From the IMG/VR virus record IMGVR_UViG_3300050029_000262: a DNA stretch of 64,000 nt. One strand, written 5' to 3'. The stretch's first letter is position 1. Each line of letters starts with the position of its first letter. This document shows positions 7,395 to 48,977 of the stretch, piece after piece. The position numbers were made by a program, and so were the translations under genes. This stretch comes from an uncultured virus (IMG/VR IMGVR_UViG_3300050029_000262) (taxonomy: Duplodnaviria > Heunggongvirae > Uroviricota > Caudoviricetes). The notes beneath the pieces are model-generated. The model saw only the letters and a list, made by a program, of their open reading frames with translations, searched no databases and had not been told where the DNA came from.

Positions 7395-8119
7395 TGGAGA
7401 ACATGGCCCGCACACCCAACGCCAAACTCATCACGGACATCGACGGCACGCCCATGGCGCGTGCCGACTGGAACAAGCTGGTAGACGGCCTCGACTTGCA
7501 GACCTACGGCCTGGGAATAACCCTGGGCAGTGGCCTGGTCAGCGGCGGCATTATCCTGATTACCGGGAAGGTCTCTGCCGCCGTCGCCTTGGTGGATGGG
7601 TTCCGCGGCGCAACTTCCTCCGACCAGGACATCGCGGGGCTGGTCAACGGCCTGACGAACAACATCTGGTGCGTGCGCGTAGACCCGGCGGGCGATGACC
7701 CGCTGCTGGCGGACACCTTCCACGCCGGGGTGCTGGCCTTCATTGCCTCCGCCACGCCTCCGCCACACTCATTCTTTCTGGGCACGCTGGCCGTGGACGG
7801 CTACGGCGCAGGCACGTTGGCCGTCAATGACTTCCCGACCCGCCCCACCGTCCTACCCGGCGCGGTCGTTACCTGGCAGTGGTCGGTGAACGTGACCGGC
7901 CTGACGACCGGCACCGAGAGTTGGCATGATGTGGACCACGTAGCGGTTGTGACCTTCCGCGCGGTGTCATTGTTGGAGGTGGTTAGCGTCACGGCCGGTT
8001 TCACGGTCACGCGGCTGGAGAATTGCCAACCGTCACAGTTTGGTTTCCTGTGCCATGACGTGTCCGCCGGTGCCGTCACCTGCACCATCGTCTTCCGCCG
8101 GACGGGCGTGGTGGCATGA
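7394..8119 (+). CDS. Baseplate/tail structural protein (hypothetical)
   Basis: Translationally coupled; beta-rich, 241 aa. Confidence 0.5.
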   Translation: MENMARTPNAKLITDIDGTPMARADWNKLVDGLDLQTYGLGITLGSGLVSGGIILITGKVSAAVALVDGFRGATSSDQDIAGLVNGLTNNIWCVRVDPAGDDPLLADTFHAGVLAFIASATPPPHSFFLGTLAVDGYGAGTLAVNDFPTRPTVLPGAVVTWQWSVNVTGLTTGTESWHDVDHVAVVTFRAVSLLEVVSVTAGFTVTRLENCQPSQFGFLCHDVSAGAVTCTIVFRRTGVVA

Positions 8120-11100
8120 GTGAGCCAACAGCCCCGGTAGGTATCATAGTCCGCAGCGGCAAGGTCCAGATGGTGACTACGCCTGCCTACGTCACGCGCG
8201 CTGCCGTCAGTAGTATCACCACGTCAACCCGGCTCTGCTTCCTGACGCCCCGGCCCGGCCCTCCCCCGCAGGTCACCCGCTTGCCCGGCCCCGCCCTGCC
8301 GCCGCCTGCCGCCAGCTTCATCATCCCCGTCTACAATGGCGAGGCCTTCCTGGCGGAGGCCATCGCCAGTTGCTTCTCCCAGACCGTCCCAGACGTGGAA
8401 GTGGTGGCCGTGGATGATGGCAGCACGGACGGTTCCGCTGCCCTGCTGCTCAAGTTGCAGGCACAGTACGGCCCGCGCCTGGTCGTGGTGCAGCAGGCCA
8501 ACCGGGGCGTATCCGCGGCTCGCAATACCGGCATACGGGCGTCGACCGGCCCCGTGGTGCTGTACCTCGACTGTGATGACCTGGCTCCGCCGGAGCGCGT
8601 GGCCTTGTCATTGTCTCTACTGGAGACAGGTGCTGACATTATCTACGGTCAGGAAGAGGAGTTCATCGAGGGGCAGGACGGCCCGCGGAAACGCACCGCC
8701 GGTATCCGGCAGATCGACCGCGGCAACGCCGTCCAGGGTTGCGGGTTCCGCACCGGCACGGTGGCCGCCCGGCGCAGTCTGCACCTGGAGCGCGGCGTCT
8801 GGCTGGACGAGACGATGGCCGGGGCGGAGGACTACGAACTGTCCCTGGCGGCGCTGGCCTCCGGGGCAACCTTGAAATGCAGCCCAGACGTGCTACTATG
8901 GAGGCGCAACCGCCCGGACAGTCTGCGCGCCCGTTGTGACTGGGGGCCGCTGCGCAACTACGCCGTGCTGAAACACGCAGACTTCCTCGCCCGCTACACG
9001 TCGGCCCCGGTGCCCGTGTCGGCGGAGCAGGCAGAGGAAGTGCGGCGATTGCGGACGGCGGCGGCAACAATGAAACCGGAGGCAGTTGAAACTGTCATGC
9101 CCCAGACCACGCCAGCGGAGTTCATCATCGGCACGGCAGAGCAGATCGCGGACCGGCTCCAAACCAGTCTCGCCGCGGACCTGGTGCTGGTGACGCCGGC
9201 GGCGGCAACGGACGCCTGGCCCAACGACCGGACGGACTTCGCCCGCCTCCTCTCCTGCCTGGCCGACCCCTCCGTTGGCGCCGCGGCGCCCCTCTTTCGC
9301 GAGAGCGTCAATTCTGACCAAAAAGCCAGTGTTAGGGCAGAGGGGTATCTGCGTACCCGGCAGCCGTTAGCGGGCTGCCTCGCGCTACGGCGGTGGGTGT
9401 TAGAGGCAGTGGGCGGCTTTGATGAGACCTGGGGGGAGGCGTGGCCCCTGTTTCTGTGCGAGGCGCTGCTGCGGCACCACTACCGCCTGCTGATCGACCG
9501 GGGCCTGCTCATCGAGGGCAAGGCAACCGTGCCCAAGCGCGCCGTCGCGGCCTTCCAAAAGTCTACCGGCTGCAAGTTGGCCGACCTGCCCGCCTGCTAC
9601 CCCGACCCGCTGTTCACGGCGGTAGTCACCGTGCCGGATGGTTCCCCGGAGGCCTACACCAAGCGCACCCTGGAGGCGTTGCTGGCGGCGGCTCCGGCGG
9701 AGGACCTGGAGGTAGTGCTGGTTGGCGCAACCGGCTTTCCGGTCAGCGGCGAGCGCGTCATTCCGGTACTTGCTCCGGCCCTGGCCTGCGACGGCTACAA
9801 CAGGGGTGTGCGCCGCGGCCTCGGCAAGTATGTGCTGTTGCTCAAGTCAGGTGACACACTGGACGCGGCCTACCTGGCAGCCGTCATGCGCCAGTTGGAG
9901 ACGGCGGAGGTGGCCGTCCACGCGGTGACGGGCGCCGGGCGGCACTATGGCCAGCACCTCGCGGGCGTGGCAACCCGGCGGAGCGTGTTCATGCGGCACG
10001 GTCTCTGGCTGACGGACGGACGAGACGAGGGCGAACTGGGGGAGCAGTTGACGGTGGCGGCCCGGCGGGCAGGTCTGTCCGTGGTAGTGTCGGAGCACGG
10101 CCCCGCCGTCCAGACCGGGCGGCGCATCATCCTACGCGGCTTTCCCAAGACGGCCACAGTGCGCTGGGACAAGACCCCGCTGGTCTTCATTTCGACGTGC
10201 AGCCTGACCGTCACGGGCGGCGGGCAGCGCCCGGCACAGATGGCCCGCGCGGCGGCGGCGGACGGCCACCCCGTCATCTTCTTCAACGACAATCACCAGC
10301 TTGAATGGGCCGCCGACAACCTGCTGGCCTGCAACCAGGAGGCCCTGCTGCTGCTGGCCGAGGACCTGCGCGACCGCGCGGGCACGGCCATCTACGGCCT
10401 GCCGGACTTGGCCGCCTGGGTACACCCCTTCGGTGACCGCTGGCGCGGCGTGTTTGACTTCTGCGACGACTGGGAGGAGTTTGCCAAGGTGGGGCACCTA
10501 CCCGCCTTCGACCTCAACCAGTACCGGCAGGTGTTGTTGGAGGCGCCGCTGGTCGTCTGCTCCGCGCAACGCCTGGTGGACATTGCGGAGGCGCACGGCT
10601 CGAAGAACGCGATCCTGGTAAGGAACGGCGGCCCGGATCGCCCGCTGACCGTGGAGCAATACCCGCGCCCGGAGGACTTTCTGGACGGTGACCTCAAGGT
10701 CTGCTTCATCGGCAGCACTTGGGGCAAGTGGCTGGACTGGTCGGCCTTGGGCAGATTGGCGAAGGACCTCCAACGCCGGGGCGGTGTCATCAACATCATC
10801 GGCGGCAACTATAGCGGGCAGATGCCGACCTATGCGAACGTGCGCTGGCACGGGGAACTGTCCTATCACCGGGCTATGGCCTTCGCCGTCCACAGTGACG
10901 TAGGCATCGTGCCTTTCTGCAATGAGAAGATTTGCGCCAGTGTTGACCCGGTGAAATACTATGACTACGTGGCGGCGGGGTGCCGCGTGGTCGCCACCGA
11001 GGTCCTGACGGAGATGAAAGGCCGAGACTATTGCCGGCTGGCCCCGGCGGAGGAGTTGGCGGCGGCCGTAGTGCGGAGTGCGGAGGAGCCCCGGCTGACG

Positions 11101-11205
11101 TTGGCGCAGCGGGCGCGGTTCTGCCAGGACAACTCCTGGCACCAGCGCATGGTCGCGACGTTCAAGGCCCTCAAGAAACTGCCCGCCCCGGAGGTAACCC
11201 GATGA
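8116..11205 (+). CDS. Multi-domain glycosyltransferase (N-terminal GT2, degenerate GT2-like modules, C-terminal GT-B/GT4-like domain)
   Basis: SFIIPVYNGEAFLAEAI..VDDGSTD..NRGVSAARNTG..YLDCDD (GT-A); VGGFDE; C-terminal DFCDDW, DVGIVPF..VDPVKYYDYVAAG (GT-B). Confidence 0.85.
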   Translation: MSEPTAPVGIIVRSGKVQMVTTPAYVTRAAVSSITTSTRLCFLTPRPGPPPQVTRLPGPALPPPAASFIIPVYNGEAFLAEAIASCFSQTVPDVEVVAVDDGSTDGSAALLLKLQAQYGPRLVVVQQANRGVSAARNTGIRASTGPVVLYLDCDDLAPPERVALSLSLLETGADIIYGQEEEFIEGQDGPRKRTAGIRQIDRGNAVQGCGFRTGTVAARRSLHLERGVWLDETMAGAEDYELSLAALASGATLKCSPDVLLWRRNRPDSLRARCDWGPLRNYAVLKHADFLARYTSAPVPVSAEQAEEVRRLRTAAATMKPEAVETVMPQTTPAEFIIGTAEQIADRLQTSLAADLVLVTPAAATDAWPNDRTDFARLLSCLADPSVGAAAPLFRESVNSDQKASVRAEGYLRTRQPLAGCLALRRWVLEAVGGFDETWGEAWPLFLCEALLRHHYRLLIDRGLLIEGKATVPKRAVAAFQKSTGCKLADLPACYPDPLFTAVVTVPDGSPEAYTKRTLEALLAAAPAEDLEVVLVGATGFPVSGERVIPVLAPALACDGYNRGVRRGLGKYVLLLKSGDTLDAAYLAAVMRQLETAEVAVHAVTGAGRHYGQHLAGVATRRSVFMRHGLWLTDGRDEGELGEQLTVAARRAGLSVVVSEHGPAVQTGRRIILRGFPKTATVRWDKTPLVFISTCSLTVTGGGQRPAQMARAAAADGHPVIFFNDNHQLEWAADNLLACNQEALLLLAEDLRDRAGTAIYGLPDLAAWVHPFGDRWRGVFDFCDDWEEFAKVGHLPAFDLNQYRQVLLEAPLVVCSAQRLVDIAEAHGSKNAILVRNGGPDRPLTVEQYPRPEDFLDGDLKVCFIGSTWGKWLDWSALGRLAKDLQRRGGVINIIGGNYSGQMPTYANVRWHGELSYHRAMAFAVHSDVGIVPFCNEKICASVDPVKYYDYVAAGCRVVATEVLTEMKGRDYCRLAPAEELAAAVVRSAEEPRLTLAQRARFCQDNSWHQRMVATFKALKKLPAPEVTR

Positions 11206-22747: not shown

Positions 22748-23029
22748 ATGGTAAACTCACCCCAGTATCACAGCATCGAGAAGCGGTTCGGGCGGCCCAT
22801 GCGGGACGTGCTGGTTACGCTTCTGTCGCACTACCAGCGGGAGCGCGTGGCGGTCATGTTGGGCATCAACCCCAACACCCTCGACCGCTACTTGTCCGCC
22901 AACAGCCTGCGGTCAGAGCCGCTGCGGGCCAACGTCGTCAAGGTCATCCAGACGGGCGCGCCGGCCACGCCCGCCCCGGCCTCCGCGGCCAAGGCCATCC
23001 TGGCCAAGGCAACCGCGGTGGCCCCGTGA
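22748..23029 (+). CDS. Small HTH DNA-binding protein
   Basis: AAGGAG RBS; RERVAVMLGINPNTLDRYL HTH-like segment. Confidence 0.6.
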   Translation: MVNSPQYHSIEKRFGRPMRDVLVTLLSHYQRERVAVMLGINPNTLDRYLSANSLRSEPLRANVVKVIQTGAPATPAPASAAKAILAKATAVAP

Positions 23030-25809
23030 GCACCGTCACCTACGGCGTGAATCGCACCGGCCCCCTGCCCTGCGTCTGGCTGCGGTGCGACTACGGCGCC
23101 CGCGACCGGGCCAAGGCCGTGCCCGGCTACCGCTGGCATGACCAGGAGCATTTCTGGTACTGGCCGCTGACCCGGCAGGGTGACGAGACCGTCATCCTGA
23201 AGGCGCTGCTGGCGGCCTTCCCGGAGGCGGTGCTGGGCGCGGCGGCGAGCCTGCCGCGTTCCGCGCCCACGCCCCTCCCGGAGTGCGGTCCGTCCCTGGG
23301 CGACCTGGTGTCCGGTGCGAACACAATCTACCCTTGGCGGCGCACGCCCTACCTCCATCAGAAGGAAGTCGTGACGGCCTCTGTGCTGCGGCACCGTCTG
23401 CTGGTGCTATACGAAATGGGTTTGGGCAAAACACAAGCAGCCATTGAGGCGGCCTGCCTGGCGCTGGAGGCGGGCATCGTGGCGCGCGTCTACATCATAT
23501 GCCCGGCGACCGTCCGACAAGTCTGGCGAGATGAGATCAATGCCTGCGCCTGGATTGCCCCGGACGATGTCGCGATAGTACGCGGCAACCCGCCAGCAAC
23601 GAATCCCGACCGGGCACCCGGTCTATCCGACCCGCAGTACCGCAGGCGGATGCTGGAGCGCCGGGCGGCCTGGACCATTATGGGTTACGAGGCGGCGACC
23701 ATCGAGGTAGACCTGCTGAACACGCTGACCAAAGGGCAGCACCTCATCGTGGATGAGGCGCATTATTGCGTGCCCGGTGACACACTGATTGATACACCGG
23801 ACGGTCCCCGTTCCATTCCCTACCTGCGAGATGGTAACACAGTTTGGGGTTGGGATGATGCAACCCAAACACTGGTGCCCGCTGAGGTCACGGCAACAAT
23901 GAAGCACTCATCGGAGGAGGCACTTTGCGAGTTAGGGGCACTGCAGTTGACGGGAAATCATCCCGTCTGGACGGCCAACCGCGGCTATGTGCCTGCCGCC
24001 GAATTGGAGGCTGGTGATGTTCTGTCTTACCTGCGAGGAGTGCGGAACGAGATTCCAAGTGAAGCATCAGCACGATGCGATGGGTCCAAAGCGCAGACGA
24101 TTCTGCAACAAAAGTTGCTCGGCCAAGTGGAGGATGCGCCAGCCGGAATATCGGCGGACACGCGAGAAATGGACACCGGCGCAAATAGCGACAGCGCGGA
24201 AAACTATTCTGTCAGTTCGACAGCGGCCGGAGGTCGTGAGTGCGCTGGAAAAACACCTGCATTCGGACAGCAATGCTTTTCGGTCTCGCCAGCCGGAGTT
24301 GCAAAAAAAAGTCCATGCGAAGTTAGCGGCGCAGGACTACTCTCACCTCAACGGGGGCAACGGCAGGCCTCTTCCGAAAGCTCACGCATTGCTGGCGGAG
24401 AAGTTGTCATGGCCGACGGAGTTCCCGGTGAATACTGGACAGTCGAGCAGTTCCGGCTATCCGACGTGCTACAAGTTGGACCTGGCAAACCCGCATCTGA
24501 TGCTGGGCATAGAGGTGGACGGAGTGGGGCATTTGGCGAAGGACCGGGCGGCACTGGACGTGAAGAAGGACAACTTCCTGAAGACACTCGGATGGACTGT
24601 ATTGTGCTTCACGAACAGGGAAGTGCTGGAGCAGACGGAGAATGTACTGGCGGCCATCAGCGCTCACTCTTCAACATTGAGACTACCACCGGAAACTACT
24701 TCGCCAATGGGGTATTAGTTCACAACTGCAAAAACCCACGTGCCAAGCGCACCAAGGCCGTGTTCGGCTTCAAGCCGGCGCGTGCCATCATCCAGACCGG
24801 CACGCCTGTCGTCAACACCCCCTCCGACGCCTACTGCATGGCGACCTTCTGCGAGCCCGGCCTGCTGGGCAAGAGCATCTTCGACTTCCGTGACCGCTTC
24901 GTGGTCATCAAGCAGATCCGCGCGGGCGGCCGGGCCTTCGACAAGGAGGTGGGCTACAAGGACATCGCGGAGGCCAGCCGTCGTCTGCTGTCGGTGGGCC
25001 TGCGGAAACTGAAGCGCGACTGTCTGGACCTGCCGCCGAAGGTACGCACCCGGCGCTACTGCGAGATGAGTGCCGCGCAGTACGAGGCCTACGCGGCCAT
25101 GTTGGGACTGGTCGGTGACCAGCTACGGCAACTCCAGGATGAACACCCCGGCCACCTCCCGATGCCCGCCGTGCTGTCGCAACTGGTGCGGCTTCAGCAG
25201 GTGGCGGACGGCTTCTACCCAGACCCCGACCACCCGGAACGCGACATCTGGATACCGGACGCCTGCAAGTTCGAGGCGGCGGACGAACTGCTGGAGGAGG
25301 CCATCGAGAACGGGCGCAAGGTCGTGGTCTGGACACGGTTCGTCGCCCTGGCGCGGAAGGTGGCGGAGCGGTACTCTAAGCATGGCGCGGAGTATCTGGC
25401 GGGGGAGGTCCCCACCGACACGCGCAACGCGCATATCGCGGCCTTCACGCACGACCGGACGCACAAGGTGCTGGTGTTGACGATGGGCGTGGGCGGCCTG
25501 GGCCTCAACCTGCAAGCCGCCGACTGTGAGATTTTCATTGACCGTTGGTGGTCGCCCGCCCTCAACTTTCAGTGCGAGGACAGGTGCCACCGGAGCGGCC
25601 AGCGCAATGAGGTGGACGTGCATATCCTGCTGGCGGAGGGGACGATTGATGAGCACGTCAACAACATCCTCAAGCGCAAGGAGAAGATTGCGGACAGCAT
25701 GACCGGGGACGCGGCGGACCCGCTGGCAGCCCCGGCGGAGCCGGAAGGAGGTTTGTTCGACACGGCCCTACTCAACGCCATTATTGGCGGCGACCTGTTC
25801 AAGAGATGA
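23026..25809 (+). CDS. SNF2-family helicase (HARP-like N-terminus) interrupted by an intein
   Basis: EMGLGKT (motif I), IVDEAH (II), TGTP (III), GLGLNLQAAD, WWSP..NFQCEDRCHRSGQ (VI). Confidence 0.9.
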   Translation: MSTVTYGVNRTGPLPCVWLRCDYGARDRAKAVPGYRWHDQEHFWYWPLTRQGDETVILKALLAAFPEAVLGAAASLPRSAPTPLPECGPSLGDLVSGANTIYPWRRTPYLHQKEVVTASVLRHRLLVLYEMGLGKTQAAIEAACLALEAGIVARVYIICPATVRQVWRDEINACAWIAPDDVAIVRGNPPATNPDRAPGLSDPQYRRRMLERRAAWTIMGYEAATIEVDLLNTLTKGQHLIVDEAHYCVPGDTLIDTPDGPRSIPYLRDGNTVWGWDDATQTLVPAEVTATMKHSSEEALCELGALQLTGNHPVWTANRGYVPAAELEAGDVLSYLRGVRNEIPSEASARCDGSKAQTILQQKLLGQVEDAPAGISADTREMDTGANSDSAENYSVSSTAAGGRECAGKTPAFGQQCFSVSPAGVAKKSPCEVSGAGLLSPQRGQRQASSESSRIAGGEVVMADGVPGEYWTVEQFRLSDVLQVGPGKPASDAGHRGGRSGAFGEGPGGTGREEGQLPEDTRMDCIVLHEQGSAGADGECTGGHQRSLFNIETTTGNYFANGVLVHNCKNPRAKRTKAVFGFKPARAIIQTGTPVVNTPSDAYCMATFCEPGLLGKSIFDFRDRFVVIKQIRAGGRAFDKEVGYKDIAEASRRLLSVGLRKLKRDCLDLPPKVRTRRYCEMSAAQYEAYAAMLGLVGDQLRQLQDEHPGHLPMPAVLSQLVRLQQVADGFYPDPDHPERDIWIPDACKFEAADELLEEAIENGRKVVVWTRFVALARKVAERYSKHGAEYLAGEVPTDTRNAHIAAFTHDRTHKVLVLTMGVGGLGLNLQAADCEIFIDRWWSPALNFQCEDRCHRSGQRNEVDVHILLAEGTIDEHVNNILKRKEKIADSMTGDAADPLAAPAEPEGGLFDTALLNAIIGGDLFKR
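23767..24726 (+). mobile_element. Intein, 320 aa, inserted right after DEAH-Y
   Basis: Block A CVPGDTLI, block B LTGNHPVWT, blocks F/G FNIETTTGNYFANGVLVHN followed by Cys+1. Confidence 0.9.
24017..24718 (+). CDS. Nested +1-frame gene inside the intein: zinc finger + DUF559/Vsr-like PD-(D/E)xK endonuclease
   Basis: GGAGG at 24006-24010, ATG at 24017; CEECG..RRFCNKSC; YKLDLANPHLMLGIEVDGVGH...KKDNFLKTLGWTVLCFTNREV. Confidence 0.8.
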   Translation: MFCLTCEECGTRFQVKHQHDAMGPKRRRFCNKSCSAKWRMRQPEYRRTREKWTPAQIATARKTILSVRQRPEVVSALEKHLHSDSNAFRSRQPELQKKVHAKLAAQDYSHLNGGNGRPLPKAHALLAEKLSWPTEFPVNTGQSSSSGYPTCYKLDLANPHLMLGIEVDGVGHLAKDRAALDVKKDNFLKTLGWTVLCFTNREVLEQTENVLAAISAHSSTLRLPPETTSPMGY

Positions 25810-46655: not shown

Positions 46656-47348
46656 TTGCGACCAAGCGGCGCGAAAGGCGTAAAAAAGCCAGTGCTGGGG
46701 CGTGGCGGCTACCCGCCTACGCTCGTGCGCCAGGTTCGTGACGCCTGGGCCTCCGGTGAATACAATAGTGATAAGGCGCTGGCCGAGGCGTTCAACCTCT
46801 CCCGCTCCGAGACTATTGCGGAGTGGCGTATCAAACACGCGCCGGACGGCATCTCCTGGGACAGCATCCGCGACAAGCTCAACCAGGGTGCCCTGGACGT
46901 CATCGCCCAGCGCCTCGGAGAATCCTCCGCCGACGCCACCCTGCGGCACCTGAAGATCGTCCGCGCCGCGCAGACCACAGTGGCCCGCTACATCTTCGGC
47001 CAGCGGCTGGAGTTGGCGGACGGCACCACGATGAGCATTCCGTCCGTGGAGCCAAAGTCGTTGGGGGAGGCGGTCAAGTCATACATTGACCTGGTGCGCA
47101 TCGAGCGGCACATGCGCGGGGAGCCGGACGTGCGCGTGGAGCACTACCTGACGCTGGTGGGTGAGGTGGTAGCGGAAGTCGCCACCCTGTTCGTGGCGGA
47201 GATGGGCCTGCCCGCGGCGCGCGTGGTGCGGTTCGAGGAACTGTTTGGCGACAAGTTGAAGGGGGCGCTGGCGGACGCGGAACGCAAACTGCTGCCCGCG
47301 GGCACGGAGGCGGAGCGCTGGACGGCCGACGAGGGCGAGGAGGAGTGA
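46656..47348 (+). CDS. Putative terminase small subunit
   Basis: N-terminal HTH (DKALAEAFNLSRSETIAEWR) plus helical body; upstream of ParB/TerL. Confidence 0.55.
   Translation: MRPSGAKGVKKPVLGRGGYPPTLVRQVRDAWASGEYNSDKALAEAFNLSRSETIAEWRIKHAPDGISWDSIRDKLNQGALDVIAQRLGESSADATLRHLKIVRAAQTTVARYIFGQRLELADGTTMSIPSVEPKSLGEAVKSYIDLVRIERHMRGEPDVRVEHYLTLVGEVVAEVATLFVAEMGLPAARVVRFEELFGDKLKGALADAERKLLPAGTEAERWTADEGEEE
47211..47262 (+). repeat. 52-bp exact direct repeat with 52520-52571
   Basis: CCCGCGGCGCGCGTGGTGCGGTTCGAGGAACTGTTTGGCGACAAGTTGAAGG. Confidence 0.9.
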
Positions 47349-47437
47349 GTGAGTCTCTAGAGAGAGGAGAGAGGAGAGAGAGAGGAGGAGGAGGGGAGGA
47401 CTCTACTACTACTGATTGTAAGAGGAAGACCCTGCTG

Positions 47438-48115
47438 ATGCGCCAAGTCAAGATCATCAACAAGCCGCTGGACTGGTTCACCGACAATCCCGACAACTAC
47501 CGGGCGCATCCCGCCGACCAGCAGGCCGTGCTCCAGCGCAGCCTGCGGAAATTTGGTGTGGTAAAGAATGTGGTAGCCCGGCCGGACGGCACCATTCTGT
47601 GCGGGCACGGCATCATCGCCGCGGCCAAGGCGGAGGGGCTGGCGGACTTCCCGGTGGTGATCTTCGAGGGCACAGACGCGGAGGCCAAGGCGCTGCTGAT
47701 CACCGACAACGAAATCAGCACCATGGCGATGGATGATGACCGCGCCCTGACGAACCTGCTCAAGGACCTCCAGGACATCGACCCGGAGTTGCTGGAAGTC
47801 ACCGGGTTTGACAGCATGAAGTTGGCGGCCCTGGTGTTGGTGACGCGCAGGGAAGATGAGATACCCGACTTCGATGCGGCCCTCCATTGGACAGGGATGC
47901 CGGAGGTGGAGGAGCGGCAGCGCAAGACGGGCGTGGAGCTCATTGTGCGGTTTGAGACAGAGGAACAACGGCAGGAGTTCATGGAGCGCAACCAGTTGAG
48001 AAACCTGTCAACGGGTGCAGAAAAGCGTAGCGGCGCAACGATGTCCGCCTGGTATCCAGCTAGACCACGAGACAATCCGGGCAGCAGCCGGTTTGCCGAC
48101 GGAGATGATGAGTAA
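47438..48115 (+). CDS. ParB N-terminal-domain protein (third)
   Basis: NPDNYRAHP..Q...L..SLRKFG.VKNVV....ILCGHG...AA, LITDN, TGF. Confidence 0.85.
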   Translation: MRQVKIINKPLDWFTDNPDNYRAHPADQQAVLQRSLRKFGVVKNVVARPDGTILCGHGIIAAAKAEGLADFPVVIFEGTDAEAKALLITDNEISTMAMDDDRALTNLLKDLQDIDPELLEVTGFDSMKLAALVLVTRREDEIPDFDAALHWTGMPEVEERQRKTGVELIVRFETEEQRQEFMERNQLRNLSTGAEKRSGATMSAWYPARPRDNPGSSRFADGDDE

Positions 48116-48977
48116 CATGCGGCTGCCCCGTTACCCTGTCTACATTCCCTCTCGCGGGCGTAGTGATGAATGCCTGACGGCCCGGTTTCTGGAGCATGAC
48201 GGTGTGCCTTTCCGGTTGGTGGTGGAGCCGCAGGAGCACGATCTGTACGCGGCTCGGTTTGGTGCGGAGCGGCTGCTGGTGCTACCGGAGAAAAACACGA
48301 CTGGCCTCCACTGGGCACGCAACTGGATTAAGGACCATGCCGTAGCAGAGGGGCATGCGCGGCACTGGCAACTGGATGACAACTGCCGACGCATAGCCAG
48401 ACTCTACCAAGGGCGGCGCATCCCTTGCGCCGCGGGCGTGGCCCTGGCCGCCACTGAGGACTTCGTGGACCGCTATGAGAATATCGCCGTCGCCGGCCTG
48501 AACTATGAGATGTTCCTGCCTTCCACATACGACGGCATTCCCACCCCGCCCTTCCGGGTCAACGTCCACGTCTACTCCTGCTCGCTCATCCTCAACAGCA
48601 TTCCAAACCGCTGGCGCTGTGCCTATAATGACGACACGGACCTCTGCTTGCAGGTATTGGCGGACGGCTGGTGTACGCTGCTGATGAACGCCTTCATGGT
48701 CAAGAAGATGACAACCATGACCATGCACGGCGGCAACACGGATGACTTCTACCAGGGCGACGGCCGGCTGCGCATGTCGCGCTCCCTGGAGCGCCTCTGG
48801 CCGGGTGTGGTGGAGACCAAGCGCCGCTACGGCCGCCCGCAGCACGTCATCAACTGGCGCAAGTTCCGCACGGAACTGAGGCTCAAGCCGGGCCTGTCGG
48901 TGACTGACGGCCCGGATGAGTACGGCATGGTACTGGGGCCGAACCCCAACTACTGCAAAGGAGCCGCCACCCCATGA
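48105..48977 (+). CDS. GREB1-like / TET-associated-type glycosyltransferase (putative DNA-modifying)
   Basis: YPVYIPSRGR, LVVEPQE..Y, ARNWI, HWQLDDN, YNDDTDLCLQVL, MHGGNT. Confidence 0.75.
   Translation: MMSNMRLPRYPVYIPSRGRSDECLTARFLEHDGVPFRLVVEPQEHDLYAARFGAERLLVLPEKNTTGLHWARNWIKDHAVAEGHARHWQLDDNCRRIARLYQGRRIPCAAGVALAATEDFVDRYENIAVAGLNYEMFLPSTYDGIPTPPFRVNVHVYSCSLILNSIPNRWRCAYNDDTDLCLQVLADGWCTLLMNAFMVKKMTTMTMHGGNTDDFYQGDGRLRMSRSLERLWPGVVETKRRYGRPQHVINWRKFRTELRLKPGLSVTDGPDEYGMVLGPNPNYCKGAATP

Follow-up and report, generated by a model that had tools for sequence, protein, structure and literature searches.

Inteins whose homing endonuclease is encoded out of frame with the splicing domain, or antisense to it, are already known (Gosselin 2025; Phillips 2026; Gorbalenya 1998 as cited by the preprints). 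Here we describe a further locus of this general layout, found in a 64,000-nucleotide (nt) stretch of DNA from an uncultured virus of the Caudoviricetes (IMG/VR record IMGVR_UViG_3300050029_000262; the whole stretch is called the window below, and positions refer to it unless a locus is named). In this window, the gene for an SNF2-family helicase is interrupted by an intein, and the DNA of the intein holds a second gene, one base out of step with the first, that encodes a predicted zinc-ribbon and DUF559/Vsr-like nuclease. We consider it very probable that the locus is a mobile intein of the phage helicase whose homing endonuclease is a separate, overlapping gene. An initial annotation of the sequence had implied that the architecture might be new; it is not, since out-of-frame intein endonucleases have been described before. 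A same-strand +1 Vsr-like/DUF559 gene within a contiguous intein at Walker B was not reported in the literature that we searched, most subscription journals and preprint supplements being outside that coverage.

The available text of Phillips et al. (2026), who credit Gorbalenya 1998, describes a dnaX intein with a LAGLIDADG enzyme in the +2 frame and with the same pattern of nonsynonymous to synonymous substitution rate ratios (dN/dS) as that reported below. Their intein resembles ours in being contiguous with a disordered host-frame middle, in its overlapping endonuclease open reading frame (ORF) on the same strand with a Shine-Dalgarno (SD) motif, in its low endonuclease-frame and raised host-frame dN/dS, and in the origin proposed for it, by secondary invasion of a mini-intein. 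The two differ in enzyme, frame, and host: theirs is a LAGLIDADG protein in a +2 ORF of a cellular dnaX gene, whereas the window has a zinc-ribbon and DUF559/Vsr-like protein in the +1 frame of a phage SNF2 helicase, and the present family covers both SF2 helicases and clamp loaders. Gosselin, Arsenault, and Gogarten (bioRxiv 10.1101/2025.01.02.630785) described non-canonical inteins of actinobacteriophages whose endonuclease is antisense or read in a different frame. As far as the accessible sections of that preprint go, it shares with our case VSR-like endonucleases (tied there to 3R3P by HHpred), an origin ascribed to an invading free-standing endonuclease gene, and evidence of continued transfer. 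Unlike ours, its VSR-like endonuclease is antisense, and its same-strand out-of-frame case is endonuclease VII-like and in frame 3; the hosts that those sections name are DNA polymerase, minor capsid, terminase, and thymidylate synthase genes rather than a helicase at Walker B.

In the fractured genes of Dassa et al. 2009 (PMC2677866), the intein is split, and its two halves are separated by a free-standing endonuclease gene of the Vsr-like or GIY-YIG type. In the portion of that article available, these cases lie mostly in phage DNA metabolism genes, a likeness to our case, and the Vsr-like gene, as here, occupies the intein endonuclease site, shares the strand of the intein, and has a start of its own. 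The 3' end of the nuclease gene overlaps the C-intein coding sequence by 6 to 69 bp there, and the nuclease stop stands 8 to 74 nt before the intein end here. What sets the two apart is that the host frame of the fractured genes stops, with a 27- to 51-nt spacer and trans-splicing, whereas ours has no stop and the intein is contiguous. The ShiLan insertion, which occurs in phage DNA methylases and conceals an HNH endonuclease gene out of frame (Arsenault et al. 2025, PMC11855218), is likewise stop-free in the host frame and has its endonuclease in another frame with its own start. According to the available text, however, no splicing domain is detectable in it, the insert stays in the protein, and the nuclease is of the HNH type, whereas clear Hint lobes flank the overlap here. 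Lastly, I-Bth0305I, encoded in a group I intron of recA, is the prototype of the EDxHD homing endonucleases (Taylor et al. 2011, PMC3239194; Protein Data Bank entry 3r3p).

The helicase coding sequence (CDS) of the window (positions 23026 to 25809, plus strand, as are all window features of the locus given below) encodes a precursor of 927 amino acids (aa), or 607 aa once spliced, with the Pfam domains SNF2-rel_dom and Helicase_C and a match to phrog_62 DNA helicase (E 6.5e-93), and its frame is free of any stop across 23026 to 25806. It reads ...LIVDEAHY/CVPGDT...GVLVHN/CKNPRA, where the slashes mark the ends of a class 1 intein of 320 aa in helicase motif II (23767 to 24726, no stop; Cys1 to His319-Asn320). 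The initial annotation had placed this intein directly after DEAH; the intein, its Cys1, and its HN/C+1 end stand, and the insertion point is moved to after DEAHY. Among 31 aligned inteins, Cys1 (codon at 23767 to 23769), His65 of the block B motif TxxH (here TGNH), and Asn320 are invariant, and His319 is at least 90% conserved. The intein end VLVHN/C occupies 24712 to 24729, the last three positions (24727 to 24729) being the Cys+1 codon of the C-extein as placed by alignment with intein-free orthologs. These orthologs (P0048 to P0051; 49 to 65% identical, 597 to 630 aa) read DEAH(A/L)LKNP, and therefore Cys+1 stands in place of the Leu of DEAHxLKN. The predicted length of the spliced helicase (927 - 320 = 607 aa) is identical to that of P0048.

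An AlphaFold2 model of the intein (31-row alignment) has two ordered ends and a disordered middle. The N-terminal splicing lobe (23767 to 24033; intein aa 1 to 89, with blocks A and B) is modeled as beta strands with a predicted local distance difference test score (pLDDT) of 83 to 97, and the C-terminal lobe (24658 to 24726; aa 298 to 320, ...NIETTTGNYFANGVLVHN) has strands at 299 to 319 and a pLDDT of 95 to 97 over aa 301 to 320. The ~208 codons between them (24034 to 24657; aa 90 to 297), a stop-free shadow linker, are predicted to be disordered (pLDDT, 39 to 61) and nearly without secondary structure. When the ordered ends were compared with solved structures by VIA-align, they matched the NrdJ-1 split-intein fusion (Z 17.1, root mean square deviation 2.0, 129 aligned) and NpuDnaB (Z 17.1), and ranks 1 to 33 were intein, BIL, hedgehog-Hint, or Vint domains; Pfam gave only weak Hint matches in the intein frame, restricted to residues 1 to 89. 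The model thus supports a Hint splicing domain formed by the two ends, which would be expected to splice itself out and rejoin DEAHY to CKNPRA. Consistent with splicing, the joined product restores the DEAHxxKN of the orthologs, and all 8 of the 8 listed flanking helicase differences between the window and a further sequencing run, X3 (a peat metagenome), are synonymous.

The in-frame endonuclease domain of a canonical intein was not found in the host-frame middle by Pfam or PHROGs, and no structure is predicted there either. LAGLIDADG and HNH are absent from the intein frame according to Pfam, and any conservation in the linker is no more than that imposed by the nuclease frame. The early description of the middle as stop-free, lacking those two motifs, and reading like the shadow of another frame is thus borne out. 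GC content is 0.56 to 0.58 inside the intein, compared with 0.63 to 0.73 in its flanks.

The overprinted gene for a predicted homing endonuclease lies in the +1 frame (24017 to 24718; 233 aa, starting MFCLTCEEC). A GGAGG SD-like motif (24006 to 24010) stands 6 nt before its ATG, within the host codons L-E-A of ELEAGD; an in-frame stop occurs 22 codons upstream of the ATG, and an alternative upstream ATG at 23987, without an SD, would extend the nuclease to 243 aa. Its TAG stop (24716 to 24718) straddles host codons L317/V318, 8 nt before the intein end. The third same-strand frame of the insert has many stops. The product is laid out as an N-terminal four-Cys zinc ribbon (24017 to 24121; Cys6, Cys9, Cys30, and Cys34), a helical middle, and a DUF559/Vsr-like nuclease core (24407 to 24667; aa 131 to 217, PF04480) that includes D155, E166, D168, H172, D181, and K184, with Cys197 where relatives have Arg. 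The ORF with its GGAGG, its stop just before the terminal HN, and its zinc finger and DUF559/Vsr-like nuclease had all been read from the sequence in the initial annotation, and each of these readings holds.

Pfam DUF559 (PF04480) matched residues 152 to 216 of the +1 product with 39.2 bits, against a cutoff of 20.6, and was found in 43/43 homologues. A profile of 17 family members matched 3hrl (DUF559; E 1.2e-11) and 3r3p (the I-Bth0305I catalytic domain; E 6.5e-6), and the same two structures head the Foldseek list for the predicted nuclease fold (mean pLDDT, 82.6; core, 88 to 96), 3hrl with a probability of 1.00 (E 3.7e-3) and 3r3p with a probability of 0.99 (E 1.9e-2, TM 0.62 on the target). 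The zinc ribbon gave weak TRASH/zf Pfam matches and matches to FCS-type zinc finger profiles at E 0.05 to 0.6, and its four Cys are kept in 79 to 80 of 80 relatives, among which E166, D168, H172, and D181 are invariant or nearly so. The protein resembles I-Bth0305I, as presented in the available text on that enzyme, in its Vsr-like core and in having an N-terminal DNA-binding region ahead of a C-terminal catalytic domain. It differs in its genetic setting, and the solved structure nearest to it is that of 3hrl, a DUF559 protein. In the HMMER alignment, D168 is aligned with an Asn of I-Bth0305I, and H172 is not matched by a His.

The arrangement is not peculiar to the window. A tblastn search of GenBank phages with the nuclease returned 40 records, three of which were opened (Pseudomonas phage MR14 and two Vibrio phage types). 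Together with 80 IMG/VR contigs, the best 80 of 370 tblastn-confirmed stretches (at least 370 exist in IMG/VR), and 41 contigs of metagenome-assembled genomes (MAGs), both sets obtained by scanning with the family alignment, these made up 124 loci, near-duplicates included. In 123 of the 124, a long host ORF is open across the nuclease homologue, which is read in the +1 frame relative to it, and the other same-strand frame is never open in those 123. The exception, L062 (2968 to 3621 of its contig), is the sole free-standing nuclease locus, with 217 aa and its own start, located between a minus-strand 762-aa ORF and a 606-aa ORF whose start it overlaps by 11 nt. In the three GenBank records, the match falls in the +1 frame of a CDS annotated as helicase or "coil containing protein," with no nuclease gene annotated; the unannotated overlapping nucleases (209 to 261 aa) are those of L001 (MT104474.1 gp44), L002 (OZ196825.1 gene 0036), and L003 (MG592563.1, NVP1194O_65-71 region, gene 69). 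Relatives fused in frame were not found at E ≤1e-5 among proteins of 409 to 2000 aa, which is weak evidence.

The splicing signals recur with the nuclease. A homologue of the N-terminal splicing lobe stands directly after Walker B in 121 of the 124 host ORFs and begins with Cys in all 121; the other 3 are cut by contig ends. A C-terminal block G, ...VHN(C/S), bounded the intein in 113 loci, giving lengths of 268 to 461 aa. The boundary pattern failed in 8/121 loci, among them L047, L078, and L115, where VHN/C lies further upstream of the nuclease stop than the range searched, L034, L090, L095, and L097, where the nuclease-frame ORF continues into the extein, and L031, with its truncated nuclease. 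Insertion was always at Walker B/motif II, after DE in 100 cases, DEx in 1, DExH in 7, and DExHx in 5 (window included), and the nuclease stop ends 8 to 74 nt before the intein end in 109/113 loci, the 8 nt of the window being the commonest distance (28/113). Of the 108 available C-exteins, 102 were scanned after removal of 6 duplicates: 70 are SF2-helicase-like (69 with Helicase_C, 15 with SNF2-rel_dom, and 6 also with a DNA methylase), 15 are DnaX-type clamp loaders, and 17 had no match at E ≤1e-5. Two side observations concern single members. L090, L095, and L097, three mutually 93% identical loci on Cyanobacteriota MAG contigs, have a nuclease-frame ORF of 327 aa that runs well beyond the intein end, and L026 (2009 to 4108) has a second Hint_2 match at C-extein residues 524 to 567, in the methylase part of a helicase-methylase fusion, which suggests a second intein in the same gene.

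An overlap of this kind in a metagenome-derived sequence could in principle be a sequencing or assembly artefact, in which two compensating indels mask an ordinary in-frame endonuclease domain, and a frame change at both the entry to and the exit from the nuclease is just the effect that two such errors would have. Yet the same +1 offset recurs in 123/124 loci from unrelated assemblies, including the three cultured-phage GenBank genomes. The compensating indels that the initial annotation had named as a danger are absent from the contigs of two further peat metagenome runs, X2 and X3: a single X3 contig covers positions 23600 to 24900 and aligns with 0 gaps, as do the pieces from X2. The nuclease moreover has its own SD and ATG and a stop 22 codons upstream, and its codon choice specifically avoids stops in the host frame. 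After permutation of the synonymous codons of the window nuclease, the host frame had a mean of 8.1 stops and was stop-free in 0/500 permutations, compared with 0 stops observed. Over the family, the permutation null had a mean of 7.6 host-frame stops, and the largest probability of 0 stops was 0.084; the observed number was 0 in 124/125 matched regions, with stops in the third frame in 125/125. The host frame of the free-standing L062 has 6 stops, in line with the permutation null. Codons ending in T before AA, AG, or GA codons numbered 6/6649, all of them in L062, versus 3984/16168 elsewhere. We therefore regard the chance of an artefact as negligible; the double coding is confirmed as genuine and kept by selection. 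A fractured gene with a split intein was also considered and rejected, as there is no host-frame stop in 23026 to 25806 of the window and none in 124/125 matched regions of the family.

The nature of this selection was assessed from dN/dS (Nei-Gojobori) in 18 pairs hand-picked from a blastn list, with dS saturated or zero in some. Over the nuclease core, dN/dS was 0.06 to 0.41 in the nuclease frame and 1.09 to 2.33 in the host frame on the same nucleotides, and the flanks gave 0.05 to 0.53 in the host frame. Low values in the nuclease frame together with high values in the host frame indicate that the middle is selected as a nuclease, the host frame there being constrained only to stay open. 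Two-frame selection is demonstrated in this way at the family level, and for the window itself by the permutation test alone (0/500). The double-coding reading of the initial annotation is thereby upheld, the host frame giving a Hint fold and the +1 frame a gene that is conserved by purifying selection, and the comparison of homologues that it proposed gave frames that were both open in 123/124 loci.

If the host-frame middle were itself a functional domain, both frames would encode folded proteins, and its strict openness and a few conserved residues, e.g., L235 and Q236 (at least 90%), might be taken in that sense. These two residues are conserved, however, because the nuclease Tyr-Lys codons force them. 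In the window, the near-invariant nuclease Tyr152-Lys153 is written TAC-AAG (24470 to 24475), and the host frame has its near-invariant Gln236 there because TAT for Tyr152 would give TAA. Aa 90 to 297 have hardly any secondary structure and the low pLDDT given above in spite of the 31-row alignment, neither Pfam nor PHROGs has anything there, and host-frame dN/dS of 1.1 to 2.3 also speaks against a folded protein. We judge a functional middle to be extremely unlikely and keep to the reading in which only the +1 frame of this segment encodes a folded protein.

How the nuclease would be translated is suggested by its surroundings. A start codon with an SD at 4 to 10 nt was present upstream of the zinc finger in 52/80 distinct loci, compared with 5.5% of control start-like triplets. 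A programmed +1 ribosomal frameshift out of the host frame, with GGAGG as the stimulator, would instead fuse the nuclease to the N-extein and N-intein. SD-like sequences can stimulate frameshifting, as in prfB; the window has such a motif directly upstream, and the nuclease frame is host +1 in all embedded loci. But the ATG is at the ideal spacing (6 nt) from GGAGG, most relatives have start codons just before the zinc finger, the free-standing relative L062 has its own start, and no slippery or stop-codon shift site was seen. In several loci, e.g., L008, L047, and L116, a stop closes the nuclease frame no more than a few codons ahead of the homology, and therefore almost no room is left for a shift. 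Frameshifting is very unlikely on these grounds, and internal initiation is the route assumed in the following.

In the mechanism that we propose, ribosomes would read the helicase mRNA in the host frame across the whole insert, whose two ends (aa 1 to 89 and 298 to 320) would meet as a Hint domain, excise the insert, and rejoin DEAHY to CKNPRA, as their fold and catalytic residues suggest. The ~208 residues between the ends would act as a disordered tether, for which the sole requirement would be the lack of a stop codon. On the same mRNA, the internal GGAGG-ATG (24006 to 24019) would initiate translation one base out of step and yield a free 233-aa zinc-ribbon and DUF559/Vsr-like nuclease. 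This enzyme would cut intein-free alleles at or near the motif II (Walker B) coding sequence, and repair would copy the whole intein in; cleavage and repair copying are inferred from homology to I-Bth0305I and from the sporadic distribution of the element.

The layout probably goes back to a Vsr-like endonuclease gene, at first free-standing, that entered a mini-intein out of frame and left it intact, after which the element radiated with the offset frozen. We also put forward, tentatively and as a possibility that we would not call probable, a stronger version, in which the family is a single ancient and very successful selfish unit that descends from one out-of-frame capture of a free-standing Vsr-like gene by a mini-intein targeting Walker B (DE/DExH) codons. 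The +1 offset would have been frozen since, and the unit would have hopped among unrelated P-loop ATPases (SNF2, DExH, and XPB-like helicases, helicase-methylase fusions, and DnaX-type clamp loaders) and among neighbouring codons of the motif, as in the window, the out-of-frame state being favoured in its own right. If the single-capture reading is true, the out-of-frame state uncouples nuclease dosage from that of the host protein and spares the splicing precursor a bulky domain, and the layout is not a transitional stage on the way to an in-frame fusion. The presence of nearly identical inteins in the two diverged peat-phage alleles described next would then be homing caught in the act.

In a tree of 80 nucleases, the nuclease of the window falls in a clade of 8 (SH-aLRT 99) with seven SNF2 inteins inserted at DE/CH, three codons upstream, and the four DExHx rows do not cluster. 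The insertion at DE/CH in all seven clade-mates therefore makes the window copy look like a site-shifted member of the SNF2 subgroup, displaced within the motif. Compared with X3, the intein differs at 3/960 nt, and the 341 nt of flanking extein have 8 listed differences, or up to 14 with the unlisted ones counted (Fisher P = 0.0016 to 1.8e-6). An intein less diverged than its flanks fits recent lateral spread between diverged alleles.

Several observations weigh against the reading of the locus as a mobile intein with a working endonuclease. No Foldseek match of the nuclease reached E <0.001, and a scan of 23500 to 24900 for sigma-70-like promoters on the plus strand, by consensus only, found none. 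The dN/dS pairs were chosen by ourselves, three of them from one trio; a recognisable SD before the start codon is absent in 28/80 relatives; and the tree came from a quick maximum-likelihood search, not the finished careful one. In addition, all three intein differences from X3 (24056, 24605, and 24665) are nonsynonymous in the nuclease frame, and the window has Cys197 where 78/80 relatives have Arg and Ala87 where 71/80 have Pro. The X3 sister variant has the reverse combination, a stop at codon 14 (Q14 to TAA) with the consensus Arg197, as opposed to the intact ORF and Cys197 of the window, so that each allele possibly carries one damaging change.

These differences are what one would expect if the layout were real and the nuclease of this phage were an inactive or weakened relic, with the intein persisting by vertical descent only. 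Since all three changes alter the nuclease and one is a stop in X3, selection here is possibly relaxed, and decayed relatives do exist: in L031 (2944 to 3045 of its contig), the nuclease ORF is reduced to 34 aa and the host frame is still open, which looks like a decayed endonuclease in a surviving intein. On the other side, the window ORF is intact over 233 codons, and the nuclease agrees with the consensus in 31/33 columns that are at least 85% conserved, including the four zinc Cys, D155, E166, D168, H172, D181, and K184, so that apart from R197C and P87A all conserved residues are present. The intein is also far less diverged than its flanks between the two samples, which argues for recent transfer, and recent transfer requires a working nuclease, here or in trans. 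The nuclease may be in early decay in the window lineage, three substitutions being too few to measure selection or to settle the matter. We regard a relic that is inherited only vertically as rather unlikely and prefer the mobile intein with a separate endonuclease gene.

Taken as such, the family is a large natural data set on two genes sharing the same DNA, one constrained as a protein and the other only to stay open. It connects three arrangements so far treated apart: the endonuclease gene that stands alone, the fractured gene with its split intein, and the contiguous intein. The nuclease gene is overlooked by gene callers and in GenBank records, the three phage records having only a helicase CDS over the match. 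Several carriers are cultured phages, and therefore translation and homing are directly testable in them. These inteins, which tolerate an unstructured insert of ~200 residues, and their small Vsr-like nucleases are also possible tools for protein ligation and site-specific cutting.

Some further observations concern the helicase and the rest of the window. The closest ortholog of the helicase, P0047 (74% identical), has no motif II intein and instead carries a different one at Walker A (..EMG/CVSGDT...VVAN/CGKT; alignment A3, columns 150 to 415) with an in-frame HNH_3 domain. With one intein at Walker A in P0047 and another at motif II in the window, the helicase is a target of two unrelated inteins, at both of its ATP-binding motifs. 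The window has a GC content of 64.6% and a phage-like content, with genes for a DNA primase, a portal-like protein, a ParB-like nuclease, and glycosyltransferases. At 47345 to 48977 and 8116 to 11205, a ParB-like nuclease/methyltransferase-like gene adjoins a gene resembling beta-glucosyl-HMC-alpha-glucosyltransferase (phrog_842; E 2.4e-39), and a GtrB-like glycosyltransferase domain occurs in a 1029-aa ORF. Taken together, these genes hint at DNA or surface sugar modification by the phage.

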